Below are positions 3,041 through 56,670 of a DNA stretch of 64,000 bases, piece after piece. The notes below the pieces were generated by a model. It made no database searches, was not told the DNA's origin, and was given only the letters and a program-made list of their open reading frames with translations. The stretch is from Eledone cirrhosa (Eukaryota): contig OZ024746.1 in NCBI GenBank assembly GCA_964016885.1, positions 88,226,001-88,290,000 of the forward strand. Direction: 5' to 3'. Every line of letters starts with the position of its first letter. The first letter of the stretch is position 1. The position numbers were made by a program, and so were the translations under genes.

Positions 3041-3915
3041 AAAAGACGTAAAATAAGAACATTTTAAAAAAATTTAAAAAATTTTTTAAATTAACTTACT
3101 TACTAAAATGTTCACTCCAACTAATTAGTTTCTGCAATGGGATAAAGACAGTTACGTAATATAACTGTCGAGAATTCATTGCGTCATCAGGGAGTCTATT
3201 CTCAGCTAAGTCTCCAGGCAATGCGCGGACACTGGGGACTCATATAAAAATAATAATAATTCGGTAGATGGAACAGCTAGCGGGGACTGGATTCCATGCA
3301 CTGAAAAGCTCGCTGTCTCTGGTCAAATGGCAGATTCTAAAGAATCAATCACGTGACACTGAGGCTAGTCGGTAGGAGTGGGATGGTAAGATGCAGGTGC
3401 CTACTATCACACCAATAAATTAGTAGTGGTTTTGGCAGCAAATATAAAGAGAGTTGCTGGCACTAACTTTCTGGTGTTTTCTACGGTGTTTGTTGCTTAT
3501 TGTTTGCTGTATGATAGGGGTATCCATGGTTTTAGGTATGTACAATATTTTAACTTTATAGCCACTTCTAATTAAAGCCTCATTATAATAAGGGTACATT
3601 TTTATAGAATATTTCTTCACTATATGATAATTTAGATATCTGAGTGAGATACTGTAGACTAGATTTTTTAGTTTGGAACTAGGGTGGTTCGATAGTGAAT
3701 GTTTATATTGGAGGTTTTGGTTTGGTTTGTGGTAGGGTTGGTAAGTTCCTGTTGATAGGTCAAAAGAGATGTAGCGGAAATTTACCATTTTAGGGCTATT
3801 TTCAAAAGTAACCGTTAGATTATAGTAATTTTTGAGGAATTTCCTAATATGCTTTTTATTTCTCTCAATTGAGAGACTAAGATTATTATCTAAAAGAAGA
3901 CAGTCATCGCGATTT
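3040..3915 (-). mobile_element. Decayed Penelope/Poseidon-type PLE fragment (RT C-terminus plus 3' pLTR)
   Basis: ORF 3420-3788 (VNFRYISFDLSTGTYQPYHKPNQNLQYKHSLSNHP) is typical PLE RT thumb sequence. An RDD remnant lies near 3905, a hammerhead lies downstream, and the fragment ends at a TA tract. Confidence 0.8.
3114..3195 (-). ncRNA. Type I hammerhead ribozyme with a long branched stem II
   Basis: Minus strand: ACTCC CTGATGA C-GCAATG..(internal hairpin GACAGTTA/TAACTGTC)..CATTGC-A GAAA CTAATTAG TT GGAGT. Stem I is ACTCC/GGAGT and loop III is palindromic. Confidence 0.75.
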
Positions 3916-4809
3916 CAAATATTCGCCATGATATTTCGGACAGTTAAACGTGTTTGTTTGACCGAATATATAGATTAAATATAATTAATTGATGAAACAC
4001 ATTTTTCATAATGATACATTAACAATACAGTTTTCTACACAGTCACCTAAAAGAAATATGCTACGTAATATCTCTGGAGGTTTTTAGAGGCTTGATTATT
4101 CCTCACATATCATAAACGTCTGATAATTAGTAATTCTTCTCATGGTATTCAATTCTATTTTTATTCTATCTTCAATAAATAGTAATTACTAAAGTCTGAC
4201 TCCAAAGAACTTATAATGATGTCGAATGTAATGAACATGATTTCATACTGACGATGAATTCATGACACAAATGATGATTGCATTCATTACTTTGATGATG
4301 ATTATGATGGTGTTGTTTGTGTTAATGATATTGAAGGAGATGGTAACTCATGATAGTTGATGGTGGATGTAGAGGTGGCAGGAATGAATGTCTCGATATT
4401 ATCAGCATTAGTTGTTCAGCTCAGTTGTGTTAAATATTCTATTGTTAGTATCATACACATAATATCAATTATCTAATGGATTCGATGAGAAAATTGAATT
4501 TAGTATTGGGTGTAAAACGAAAAACGAAAATAAGAAAGGGAAAACCAGTGCACGAGACGATAATTATGTCTGGTTAATTCAGGCCATATCTGTAATTGCT
4601 TTAACTTAAATAGTTCTATGTTAGACTTAAAATACAAAATGTAAGTGAAGATTTAAAAAGCACAATGAAAATATAAAGAGAGTTGATGCAACACCTACAT
4701 GAATAAAGACATAACTCCCCTAATCTATCAATCTCTATATATATTTTTTTCTCTCTCTGTCTATCTATATATCTATCTAGTTAGCCAGCTATATATCTAT
4801 CTCTCACAG

Positions 4810-5130
4810 GCTCCAACGGTTCATTCCGTATCCGCCACTCCTACACATGTACCTCCACCCACGTTGCCTATGCCCGCCAGTGTTCGCAATTCGGGGCCTT
4901 ATACATCTGCACATGGCAGACAGTTTTGCTGAACATTTGAGGGACATACTCCTCGGTTTGGATACTACCGTCGCCCGTCATTTTCGTTACCCAGGTCACT
5001 CTTCCTACATGCCAAAGTCGGTGGTGTCTGTTTACATCACGGACCACAGGCCCCACGCACCAGGACTGTTCAGAGTATGATTTACCGCATTAGGTCCCGT
5101 TTTCCTCATAGATACAGCTCCCCCTCCCAA
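4810..5130 (+). mobile_element. Decayed PLE GIY-YIG endonuclease fragment (Neptune-like)
   Basis: Frameshifted TCTSTHVAYARQCSQFGALY..ADSFAEHLRDI..TTVARHFRYPGHS motifs. Confidence 0.65.
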
Positions 5131-5967
5131 TTTTTGTAATGCCCGTTTCATATGGCACCTTATCGTCAGAAATATATACTCATACAGCTGATACAGACCA
5201 ATCAAATACGCACACTCTACGTTTCAATTCACAGCTCTTTATATACACACACACACTTATATTAACATACATTTCCTCTATTTCTTCATATACATGGCAG
5301 AAAACTACCACCACCACCACGGGAGATTGTGGCAGGAGGGATGAAGAAACACACACACAGATACTTCTGAATTGTCAGCAGCAGCAAGAAATAAGCTGAT
5401 CACAACATCAACAACACTACCAAAATAATGGTAAAGATCAGATGTACATAACAATAGCAAACACAAACACTACAGGGAGCCTCACCCCAGAAATTATTCC
5501 TATAGACTTTGGACTGAGGAATGCTCTCAAAACTGACCAATGGGAAGAGTGAACTTACAAATCTGTATAACATTGAGATGGGTATAACACACACATTTTA
5601 TTCCATTATTTTATTTTATTTTGTCCCTTTACCAGCTTATTCCTTCTACCACTTTATCACACTTTTTTTAGCTGACTCCAACAAAAACACCACTACCAAC
5701 ATAAGAATAGAGGTCAGATGTACCTAATAAAAACAAGAGCAACAGCTACAGATTGGGTTGCCTCAGGACGAATTTCTATAGACTTTTGACTGAGGAATGT
5801 TCTAACAACTGACCAATGAGAGGAGAAAAGGCCCTTTGACGTTTGTTTAAATATAATTATAGTTCCTCAGTGAAAAATCAACCCAACCAGGAACTGGGCA
5901 TATCAGATTATTGACAATGTTATACACCTCAACATCGTGTGTACTCGTCTCTACCACACTAATTCGG

Positions 5968-6022
5968 ACTGCATGAAGAGGTCACAGCCAAAAATGGCTG
6001 TCACCGAAATATATATAGCAGT
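5968..6022 (+). ncRNA. Type I hammerhead ribozyme (core C3 mutated to A)
   Basis: ACTGC ATGAAGA GGTCACAGCCA AAAA TGGCTGTCACC GAAA TATATA TA GCAGT. Homologous to 24950-25005. Confidence 0.75.
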
Positions 6023-6130
6023 AATAAACGAAGCCAAATTTCAAACTCAAACATTAGACATATTTATTTATTTTATTTTATATATATATATATATATATA
6101 TATATATATATATATATATATATATATATA

Positions 6131-54611: not shown

Positions 54612-55230
54612 ATATATATATATATATGTGTGTGTATATTTGTTAACATACAGATACGTACACATACACACACACATATATATATTATATATATATATAT
54701 ATATATATATATATATATATATATATATATATATATATATGTGTGTGTGTGTGTGTGTGTGTGTGTGTGTACGTGTATAATACATTAGTCATGGCAATAG
54801 ATATTATGTATGCCTACCTTTTTTATGTGAATATGTAATATAATAAACTAATATATAAATAATGTACTGCATATATATATTCATTGAAGTATTAAATAAA
54901 CAGGAAGCAAATTGTGTATTAAATCCTTTCATACAGATTCATTTTTTAATGGCTTTAAGCATGAATTACTTCATGCATACAAGTTACATATGGAATTGTA
55001 GACTACATAACTGTTATAGTTAATATAGGAAATATTAGTATTTTATGGAATTATTCTCAATACATTACGTAACGTGCAGCATCACAGTAACATAAATGCA
55101 TTCTAGCTTTTTAATGCTTTCTTTCCTATCACCGTGAATTATTTGAACGACTGAATATAAGTGTGTTTAGAGTTACAGTAACAAAATATATGGTAGACAT
55201 ATCTGAATGCACAGATATATATATATATAT

Positions 55231-55820
55231 GAGAAATTAGAAATTATAAGCTTTCACCGTATTTTAGACTAAAGAAATGTCTAGCCTGATAGTGGGGTTT
55301 ATAACCCTCGGAGAAATGGAAAAAGATGATAACCAAAGATGTGGGTTCGACTCCCATGTACGGCAACACTCATCTTTTTCCATTTCTCCGAGGGTTATAA
55401 ACCTCACTACCAAGCTAGAAATTTCTTTAGTCTAAAATGCGGTGAAAGCTTATAATTTCTAATTTCTAATTTTCAAACTCGCGTACCGTTTCAAAAACAT
55501 AATTACATGTTTACATTTATAATTTGCTTGCTTATCATTCACTTGCTAAGTTCAAAGCTTCTAATTCGAATGGAAGGAGACGGGATGTGTATTGGTGTAA
55601 TGGTACCACATTGGTCTGGATAACCAAAGATGTGGGTTCGACTCCCATGTACGGCAACACTCATCTTTTTCCATTTCTCCGAGGGTTATAAACCCCACTA
55701 TCAGGCTAGAAATTTCTTTAGTCTAAAATACGGTGAAAGCTTATAATTTCTAATTTCTAATTTTCAAATTCGCGTACCGTTTCAAAAACATACTTACATG
55801 TTTACATTTTTAATTTGCTT
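55231..55820 (+). mobile_element. Tandem 291-bp-unit element containing a tRNA-like cassette, with inverted 5' arm
   Basis: 55330-55530 repeats at 55621-55820; 55233-55329 is an inverted copy; TA flanks. Confidence 0.85.
55584..55656 (+). pseudogene. tRNA-like sequence (D, anticodon and T arms paired; acceptor stem degraded)
   Basis: TGGT-GTAATGGT-ACCA, TTGGT-CTGGATA-ACCAA, GTGGG-TTCGACT-CCCAT. Confidence 0.7.
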
Positions 55821-56064
55821 GTATATATATATACATATATATATATGTGTGAGTGTATATAAATATATATATATATATATACATATGTGTGTATCTGTGC
55901 ATATATATATATATATATTGAGAAGAGTTACACAAAATTCGATGAGTATATCAAAGAATGAGTGTTACAGTAAATTGTAAGCACTCTACGGAGAAATAAT
56001 TTTCCGGGGTTATTAATATTACAATATAAATATTAATAAAATAGATGTTCTTTCGATCAATTAC

Positions 56065-56117
56065 ATTTTATTATACATATTTCGGATGTAAAACAGTACG
56101 TCCTCAGCAGACAAAAT
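56065..56117 (-). ncRNA. Degenerate hammerhead (core A6 mutated to C)
   Basis: Minus strand ATTTTGT CTGCTGA GGACGTA CTGTTT TACATCC GAAA TATGTA TA ATAAAAT. Confidence 0.6.
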
Positions 56118-56170
56118 ATAGTGATACATGACATACCCTGAGATGTTAAATGGTTAAGATTTGTTGAGAT

Positions 56171-56670
56171 GTTTGTGTTCATTTTTCTATTTTTCTATTT
56201 ATATTTTATATTTTTATATTTGTTTATTTAAATATAAATATAAATAGAAAATATAAATAGAAAAATAGAAAAATGAACACAAACACACACAGACACCCGG
56301 ATGTGGCGCATGTGCAAACTGAGCACACAACACACACACAGAAACAAAATGGCGTAGGATAGAAGAAAGGAAAGGCACAGAAACGAAGAAAGGAATCCCC
56401 AGTCACTGAAGAGGTCACAGAGTGTGTGACGAAAGGACTATGACTATATATATAAACAACTATCTGGTTGTGGAACCAACCAACCAACCAGAAATTTATA
56501 AGTTTGTAAATATGTAAATTTGTAAATTTATGAATATATAATAAATTGAAGTGAAAGCAACTGGTGCGTGTGTTTATTATTGGCAACATGACCCTCCCAA
56601 AGTATAACAATATCGGTTTCAACACACGATTTCAGATAAAGAATCTTGCTAAACAAATTCAGAAACGAAA
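56171..56670 (+). mobile_element. Solo pLTR of the 13590-16250 PLE subfamily with small 5' inversion and ORF-start tail
   Basis: 56272-56610 aligns with the reverse complement of 13590-13905. Palindrome 56171-56284. The tail encodes [28 protein letters not shown]. Confidence 0.9.
56401..56445 (+). ncRNA. Minimal type I hammerhead ribozyme in solo pLTR
   Basis: AGTCA CTGAAGA G GTCACA GAGTG TGTGAC GAAA GGAC TA TGACT. Confidence 0.9.

Follow-up and report, generated by a model that had tools for sequence, protein, structure and literature searches.

We analyzed a window of 64,000 nucleotides from the Eledone cirrhosa genome (contig OZ024746.1, positions 88,226,001 to 88,290,000), which carries many hammerhead ribozyme motifs in Penelope-like elements (PLEs) and in non-coding units. 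A preliminary description of this DNA had listed 15 such motifs and had proposed that one class of PLE enzyme mobilizes many unrelated ribozyme-bearing passengers into (TA)n tracts. All 15 motifs were present at the positions listed. They fall into families A, B, C1, C2, D, E/E', F, G, and N, in line with the earlier count of at least seven. Judged from translations and flanking sequence, nine of the fifteen are the 3' ends of coding PLEs from three reverse transcriptase (RT) lineages. The non-coding families D, N, and F are real passengers, but they account for just six motifs and three families. What had looked like one enzyme and its many passengers is a set in which at least three PLE lineages, together with three passenger families, compete for the same microsatellite.

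Hammerhead motifs and their elements in the window

The structure descriptor combined the core CUGANGA..GAAA..UH with stems I and II and a short stem III; it misses hammerheads with a stem III longer than 11 nt, as family K (see below) showed. With a perfect core, it gave 9 matches in the window and 2 in 30 block-wise dinucleotide shuffles, and the motif density of the window exceeds that of shuffled sequence. With one core mismatch allowed, there were 12 window matches, 11 of them at listed places, and 22 in the 30 shuffles. The core is intact in 12 of the 15 copies. These include three that fail the descriptor: 22609, in which the base of stem II has decayed, and 41924 and 45254, which have the 2-bp stem I of family A. 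Motif 50692 also fails, with a broken core, and 5968 and 56065 have one core change each. Intact relatives of these three were found elsewhere in the genome. The cleavage site is UA in 13 of 15 motifs, as had been said for most of them, and UU in N and G. Three hammerhead-like motifs of a further family, H, had been overlooked (12143-12194, 13406-13457, and 45553-45604). An Rfam scan of the window gave no hammerhead among the 150 listed of its 164 matches; the matches listed were microRNA models on TA repeats. Therefore, the hammerhead call rests on the descriptor and on covariation.

The covariation to which the preliminary description had looked for a check is present in the family alignments. 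In 32 motifs of E, C1, C2, and F, 92.8% of the cells were paired, and 14 of the 17 pairs varied on both sides. The covariation score of 0.655 exceeded the 0.295 of shuffles and the scores of slid partners, which reached 0.128 at most. Compensatory change supports the pairing of stems I and II, and stem changes separate the subfamilies. Stem II of family E had been left free by the search pattern; it was paired in 315 of 352 cells in 44 distinct sequences, compared with 280.8 ± 3.6 cells, and a maximum of 293, in 2000 shuffles. Pair 4 of this stem is C-C in 40 of the 44 sequences and a standard pair in none. The 44-sequence set is the evidence for this mismatch, whereas the 44,295 matches of a pattern with the C-C pair imposed are no evidence for it. 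We found nothing relevant in the literature on a hammerhead C-C mismatch. Judged by sequence and predicted fold, the hammerhead motifs are real and stand above chance by two orders of magnitude.

Families D, N, C, E, F, and G have a self-complementary stem III, with duplex energies of -1.7 to -9.0 kcal/mol. For these families, the palindromic loop seen earlier stands. Loop III of A/B is not self-complementary, and dimer cleavage through a palindromic loop cannot apply there.

The coding motifs are of Hydra type (5968, 22609, 24950, and 56065), A/B type (13734, 41924, 45254, and 56401), or G type (50692). The RTs of G and A/B are 22 to 23% identical, and the E/C1 RT had no match to A/B/G better than E = 0.06. 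We read RW[KR] and DKT motifs and a C-terminal endonuclease in the translations of E, C1, and H, together with a CxCx5C linker, CxxC and CxH motifs, and no CCHH. The translations of A and G instead hold a CX2-5CxxC linker and, at the C terminus, a GIY-YIG domain with CCHH. Family B joins them through its 57% endonuclease identity to A; its RT is 70% identical to that of A. The G hammerhead lies 413 to 721 nt past an open reading frame (ORF) in 6 of 12 loci, with a 613-amino-acid (aa) frame carrying RT motifs in L305. Family G may resemble Neptune elements.

ORF pieces were found in all five long inverted pairs of E and in all three of C1. Inverted pairs of the Hydra type span 3.2 to 3.7 kb, longer than the 3 kb below which Hydra-clade elements tend, although not strictly, to stay. 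The 22609 motif ends a single window element of 2.3 kb. All 15 of the other copies examined from its family have the endonuclease at the same place; 4 reach the RT, and the 3' piece was seen in 13. C2 and E' are assigned to the Hydra type by endonuclease homology. The endonuclease lies 1.3 kb upstream of the C2 hammerhead at two loci, and it is in register in 9 of 20 loci of the E' subfamily closest to 56065 (79% over 253 nt). Pfam gave weak RT matches, below the cut-off, for A and B only, and no match for 10 other ORFs. Among named relatives, the best for the family A protein comes from Octopus vulgaris (69% identity), and the best for the C1 protein comes from Argonauta hians (39% identity).

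The PLE protein at 42064-44983 had been put forward as an example of the mobilizing enzymes. However, this family A copy lacks its 5' part and is interrupted by an in-frame TAA stop at 44591; it is therefore not a source of enzyme itself. We rejected a selenocysteine reading of the stop because the codon is TAA. Full-length family A copies exist in tandem, with a period of 4,147 bp, and a DNA search with family A gave at least five matches. The reading frame of A begins inside the end of its pseudo-long terminal repeat (pLTR; 45470-45503) and continues through the tail (41671-41758) into the next tandem unit.

A Naiad origin of the 3114 motif and of the adjoining remnant at 3439-4001 was also rejected, because the remnant matches Hydra-type RT thumbs at 36 to 40%. 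Family N is separate from such a remnant in 59 other loci. At 3438/3439, the truncated 5' end of N meets the same-strand remnant with no TA between them; the junction could be a template switch or a deletion.

Table 1. Hammerhead-bearing elements and adjoining remnant in the window
Feature	Position	Strand	Details
Family N, 5'-truncated copy of 558-bp non-coding tandem unit	3037..3438	-	Hammerhead 3114-3195 with UU site, long stem II, and palindromic stem III of 10 nt
Hydra-type RT-thumb remnant adjoining 5' end of N copy	3439..4001	-	Absent from other N copies
Family C1, 3' end of Hydra-type PLE	5277..6078	+	Hammerhead 5968-6022, core position 3 changed
Family D non-coding retrozyme-like unit	6571..6957	+	Hammerhead 6801-6843
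Family H inverted pair, Hydra-type 3' ends	12116..13505	.	Hammerhead-like 12143-12194 (-), A at core position 4; 13406-13457 (+), same, plus position 3 changed
Family B coding PLE, 5'-truncated, with a (TA)n tract on either side	13590..16250	-	Hammerhead 13734-13778
Family E, 5'-truncated Hydra-type PLE	20388..22712	+	Hammerhead 22605-22669 with decayed stem II; endonuclease end at 20395-20749; long 3' untranslated region (UTR) holding an inserted short repeat
Family C2, 319-bp 3' stub of Hydra-type PLE	24904..25222	-	Intact hammerhead 24950-25005
Family D inverted pair	37721..38299	.	Hammerheads 37922-37964 (-), 38095-38137 (+)
Family A coding PLE, (TA)n both sides	41671..45503	+	Hammerheads at both pLTRs; inverted 5' pLTR and tail 41671-42063, hammerhead 41924-41962 (-); 5'-truncated ORF 42064-44983; 3' pLTR hammerhead 45258-45296
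Family H, 5'-truncated Hydra-type PLE	45528..47633	-	Hammerhead-like 45553-45604, A at core position 4
Family D, inverted piece and partial tandem (424-bp period)	49808..50587	.	Hammerhead 50276-50318 (+)
Family G, 196-bp 3' stub of second Zn-linker PLE lineage	50604..50799	-	Broken-core hammerhead near 50692
Family F, 206-bp 3' stub of ~2.3-kb non-coding unit	53959..54164	+	Hydra-type hammerhead 54063-54120, tail
Family E' (Hydra-type subfamily) 3' stub	55919..56167	-	Hammerhead 56062-56120, core position 6 changed
Family B pLTR, short inverted 5' arm and tail	56170..56676	+	Intact hammerhead 56401-56445

Genome-wide abundance and insertion geometry

Seven exact family patterns gave 127,940 matches in the 3.0-Gb genome, and reversed-pattern controls gave 0 or 1. 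The matches comprised 51,955 for E, 30,792 for A and B, 26,739 for D, 5,431 for C1 and C2, 5,061 for F, 4,069 for N, and 3,893 for G. Families with their own RT/endonuclease gene account for 92,071 of the matches (72%), if the few loci examined represent their pattern class. Together with the nine coding motifs of the window, this speaks against the earlier view that the motifs are mostly passengers. D, N, and F together hold the other 35,869. Adding families H, J, and K brought the total to 177,608. As pattern counts, these totals are a floor for the hammerhead number of the genome, at about 43 to 59 per Mb. Family K, which is not in the window, has 26,089 matches and a canonical hammerhead with a stable stem III of 16 nt. 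Its stem I is compensated, its inverted pairs are very short, and it has the tail stem of the Hydra type.

As background, we took 59 segments of 10 kb at round coordinates (590 kb). The seven patterns gave 28 matches in this sample, compared with 25.2 expected, and 11 in the window, compared with 2.7 expected from the genome average. The window is thus about fourfold richer than average, and extrapolating from it overstates the load by about that factor. It is also richer in (TA)7 tracts, with 15.9 per 10 kb compared with 10.2 in the sample. Of the 51 descriptor matches in the sample, two tandem arrays held 26; one shuffle of the sample gave 0, and five more gave 0, 0, 0, 1, and 0. Scaled to the genome, this is 2.6 x 10^5 hammerheads (bootstrap 1.1-4.7 x 10^5), or 1.4 x 10^5 (0.9-1.9 x 10^5) with the arrays collapsed. 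The very large ribozyme load suggested earlier therefore stands at the order of 10^5 per genome, but not at the density of the window. Other methods gave about 120,000 hammerheads in the axolotl and 5,000 in a mussel (PMC7229834), and 235 Rfam hammerhead matches are reported for the giant squid (PMC6962438). Active Penelope-like families are listed in a 2026 repeat annotation of O. vulgaris, whose main text does not mention ribozymes (PMC13282606).

The association of the motifs with (TA)n extends beyond the window. A (TA)7 tract lay within 300 nt downstream in 151 of 190 loci from seven families, compared with 22 to 40% of flank positions. The counts were 24/30 for A/B, 25/30 for C, 27/30 for D, 25/30 for E, 14/20 for F, 12/20 for G, and 24/30 for N, and family H gave 23/30. 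Among dispersed matches of the background sample, the proportion was 20 of 25, compared with 16.4% of random positions. In the window, (TA)n is present at the 3' end of all 15 motif-bearing copies and on both sides of 10. The segments had been described as short, but three of the bounded ones measure 2.3 to 3.8 kb.

Two fixed 3' ends, one short and one extended by a tail of 60 to 150 nt, occur in each of the families A/B, C1, E, F, and N. Inverted pairs join one short and one tailed end in 11 of 13 cases for N, in 7 of 8 for F, and in 12 of 17 rows for E (of which 2 are duplicates and 5 could not be scored). All 30 N loci run from one of the two fixed ends into (TA)n, 5 of them after running into a further unit. 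The tail begins with a 4-bp stem, ACTC/GAGT, in E (35/47), C1 (9/10), and F (20/29), which is compensated to GCTC/GAGC in H (14/26). No such stem was found in N (0/40) or A/B (0/25). A one-sided tail has been described for PLEs (PMC8557442), and in vitro work on an anole element shows that two ends mark two internal RT start points (PMC11167929). These results support a PLE-linked hammerhead system with (TA)n at its insertion ends.

Non-coding passengers and a core variant

Family D, with four copies in the window, has units of 424 to 502 bp, and the N unit has 558 bp. The longest stop-free stretch in D and N is 51 to 86 aa. Both are non-coding tandem units with one type I hammerhead per unit. 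As circles they are predicted to be 63 to 71% paired (z of -4.2, -8.6, and -12.6 relative to 30 shuffles); a variable (TA)n tract inside the D unit adds to its predicted self-pairing. A relaxed D pattern had 28,553 matches, and all of the 100 listed were D. Long head-to-tail arrays exist, such as D arrays and a nine-hammerhead N array at L191. At L085 and L259, other families have landed in the internal or terminal TA tract of D. Of 30 D and 30 N loci, four had an upstream match to a Hydra-type protein, two of these on the opposite strand and two beyond a TA tract.

The unit of F in L290 is ~2.3 kb long, with internal repeats and no ORF of at least 110 aa; it lacks the size of under ~1 kb that is typical of retrozymes. 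We had considered F as a coding family at L298 and withdrew this, because the ORF piece there follows a TA run after the F tail. No PLE protein match was found in the 20 of 20 loci that hold the start of the unit. All three families occur as tandems and with inverted 5' copies and (TA)n ends, and N and F also have the one-sided tail. F works like a non-autonomous Hydra-type PLE. At L016:4045-9164, a tandem array of a 310-bp non-coding unit carries 17 intact hammerheads in two orientations; by its sequence it is a further retrozyme-like family, and no parent element was found among 10 coding elements.

Family H has 23,452 genome matches, three copies in the window, and full-length coding elements. 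Hydra-type RT and endonuclease pieces flank it in five of the six long pairs examined. Its predicted fold has a 5-bp stem I, a U-U pair followed by 3 bp in stem II, and a stable 5-bp stem III. Like the hammerhead of E, it lies 40 nt before the short end. The core is correct except for an A at position 4, which was present in all 100 of the matches listed by a pattern that left this position free. Family J, which is outside the window and unrelated to H, has 127 matches, with A at position 4 in 98 of the 100 listed. It has an 8-bp stem I, a 6-bp stem III, a GUC site, and a variable position 7. Family K was considered as a third variant and withdrawn, since it has U in 99 of the 100 matches listed. 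The text of PMC3088659, figures apart, names U4C and does not contain U4A, and we found nothing relevant on a position-4 A variant in the literature.

We tentatively suggest that H and J carry a natural hammerhead variant, with A at position 4 and a stable stem III, that may cleave alone or with the element protein, though we hold this for somewhat doubtful. For H, which is so homogeneous that it offers almost no covariation, it is a fair alternative that a founder carried the mutation in a motif that was dispensable. Such motifs are invisible to CUGA-anchored searches, and if the variant is active, some PLE families reported without hammerheads would carry them. Together with D and N, the genome would then be a test bed for the RNA features that a PLE protein needs in its passenger.

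Probable mobilization, alternatives, and related systems

We consider it quite probable that the motifs are pLTR hammerheads of several PLE families and of three passenger families, and that an RT-endonuclease, either their own or a borrowed one, nicks (TA)n and copies the RNA from a fixed point. In this scenario, each RT-GIY-YIG protein likely nicks (TA)n tracts. cDNA synthesis would start at one of two points 20 to 280 nt downstream of the hammerhead, as the anole in vitro work suggests. Copying would mostly stop early and leave stubs of 200 to 400 bp that keep the hammerhead, which would explain the motif density. F likely rides a Hydra-type enzyme, a carrier assigned because F shares its hammerhead shape and tail stem. 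D and N would ride a PLE enzyme, as their geometry suggests. The hammerhead likely trims multimeric transcripts and, to judge from published work, need not be required for insertion: its activity was not needed in vitro (PMC4209133, PMC11167929). For D, N, C, E, F, and G, trimming may involve a dimer formed by way of the palindromic stem III, and a protein may have to assist.

Several points weigh against this scenario. D and N showed no similarity to 10 coding elements (best E = 0.004, in an A/T run), so their geometry is what links them to PLE enzymes. G is less tied to (TA)n than the other families, and CA/TG repeats are met first in 5 of its 20 loci. The pattern-search loci are the first matches on contig 1, not a random draw. 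Just four empty-site matches were not self-matches, and in these the same flanks are joined by a TA-rich tract; most matches were self-matches within tandems. In the 32-row covariation set, some of the pairing in the C and F rows was already fixed by their search patterns, and kinship among copies inflates such scores. The clade names follow the motif lists of PMC8557442, not a tree with reference sequences. Finally, cleavage in vitro failed for eight of nine Xenopus retrozyme dimers (10.64898/2026.07.22.740005), and published PLE hammerheads are reported as weak or protein-dependent (PMC4209133, PMC11167929).

We give hardly any credence to the original proposal that one A-type enzyme class (42064-44983) mobilizes many unrelated RNAs, with the motifs mostly passengers. 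The (TA)n ends and PLE geometry common to all families would fit it, as would the lack of a gene in D, N, and F, and the sequence leaves cross-mobilization between families possible. However, seven of the families or subfamilies in the window have an RT/endonuclease gene of their own, and these genes represent three lineages; the proposal is already contradicted for the majority of motifs. In addition, tail length and tail stem set A/B apart from the Hydra type, and F sides with the latter. It is only slightly less improbable that D and N are satellites derived from old pLTRs that spread at the DNA level, by unequal exchange or circles, and not by RT. Their long head-to-tail arrays and the lack of a parent among the 10 coding elements agree with such an origin. 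Their copies, however, are mostly dispersed and 5'-truncated, often with an inverted 5' copy, and N ends at two fixed points before (TA)n in 30 of 30 loci and pairs short with tailed ends in 11 of 13 cases.

The (TA)n tracts might mostly have been made by the elements, through repeat addition or slippage at integration. Several short ends fall at an internal TATA-like word, D holds its own (TA)n, and few empty sites were seen. We nevertheless regard this as improbable, because 5'-truncated copies with differing truncation points have (TA)n on the 5' side too, and the empty-site matches L162/L010, L085/L090, and L078/L188 join their flanks by a TA tract. A preference for (TA)n is also reported for Hydra, Naiad, and Neptune elements (PMC8557442). 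The alternative with the most weight, although still unlikely, is that the folds are kept as protein-binding or folding elements, or as relics, and do not cleave in the animal. This would be compatible with the insertion mechanism that we favor. H reached its copy number with A at core position 4, stem I of A has just 2 bp, a mutated anole hammerhead was still inserted in vitro (PMC11167929), and Naiads thrive without canonical hammerheads (PMC8557442). On the other hand, the catalytic core is fixed while the stems change in compensating pairs across families, and the core position that varies is position 7, the free one.

Like published PLE hammerheads, those described here are type I, with a stem I of 2 to 5 bp (A, B, C, F, G, and N), an extra base before stem II (A, B, and G), and a small palindromic stem III. 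They are mostly single copies from truncated elements, with opposite-strand pairs 100 to 700 bp apart. They differ in number, with 127,940 exact-pattern matches compared with about 9,000 hammerheads in Xenopus tropicalis by another method (PMC4209133), in the fixed C-C pair of the Hydra type, and in the A at core position 4 and 5-bp stem III of H. With the Hydra clade of C-terminal endonuclease-positive PLEs (Craig et al. 2021, PMC8557442), our Hydra-type families share the RW[KR], DKT, CxCx5C, CxxC, and CxH motifs, the presence of hammerheads, insertion at (TA)n, a one-sided tail, and inverted 5' copies. An octopus family, Hydra-1_Obim, is already listed there. That clade is described as having few and generally short (<3 kb) families, whereas several here measure 3.2 to 4 kb or more, with 3' UTRs of 1.1 to 1.9 kb and tens of thousands of ends (51,955 for E and 23,452 for H). 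A/B and G share with Neptune and Nematis the CX2-5CxxC linker, microsatellite insertion, and two cysteines plus two histidines in the C-terminal GIY-YIG domain (PMC8557442), although A/B and G are just 22 to 23% alike.

D and N resemble animal non-LTR (long terminal repeat) retrozymes (Cervera and de la Pena 2020, PMC7229834; Li et al. 2026, 10.64898/2026.07.22.740005) in being non-coding tandems with one type I hammerhead per unit and highly self-paired predicted circles. The hammerhead of D is like HHR_Amex2 of the axolotl, with a stem I of 6 to 7 bp, a 4-bp stem II, and a U-U first pair. PLEs have been proposed as the mobilizing partner of retrozymes in these two reports. In contrast to retrozymes, D and N have no homology to the coding pLTRs tested, yet they show PLE insertion geometry and (TA)n ends, and the F unit exceeds the reported range of 51 to 972 bp. 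Already published, therefore, are pLTR hammerheads, stubs of truncated PLEs, the (TA)n preference, an octopus Hydra family, and retrozymes as PLE dependants. New are the scale, the conserved C-C mismatch and covarying tail stem of the Hydra type, and the 23,452-copy family H with its position-4 A. Hydra-type PLEs, so far described as a minor group, are a major repeat class of this genome. The two fixed ends, one-sided tail, and inverted 5' copy of N and F are structural evidence for the proposal that PLEs mobilize retrozymes. The tail stem, C-C mismatch, and position-4 variant offer assay handles on what PLE hammerheads are for.

Other insertions in the window also lie between TA tracts. At 55231-55821, a TA-bounded element with PLE-like geometry contains a gene (55584-55656) that resembles tRNA-Ser(GGA), together with an inverted arm and a partial tandem; no hammerhead was found in it. 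Short and often palindromic TA-bounded insertions without a hammerhead core lie at 6131-6378, 26330-26535, 49447-49527, 52724-52908, 54344-54387, and 57182-57368. A relaxed hammerhead scan of four palindromic TA-bounded copies and of the tRNA-bearing element found none. A near-perfect palindrome of 297 bp with two short TA runs occupies 61574-61870. The 439-aa ORF at 28727-30046 (-), with a zinc-knuckle-like motif and no Pfam match, is likely ORF1 of a long interspersed nuclear element. A short interspersed repeat of ~190 bp is present at 1268-1418, 1799-1996, 21818-22003, 26067-26227, 35901-36019, and 45741-45939; two of its copies lie in the 3' UTRs of the E and H elements.

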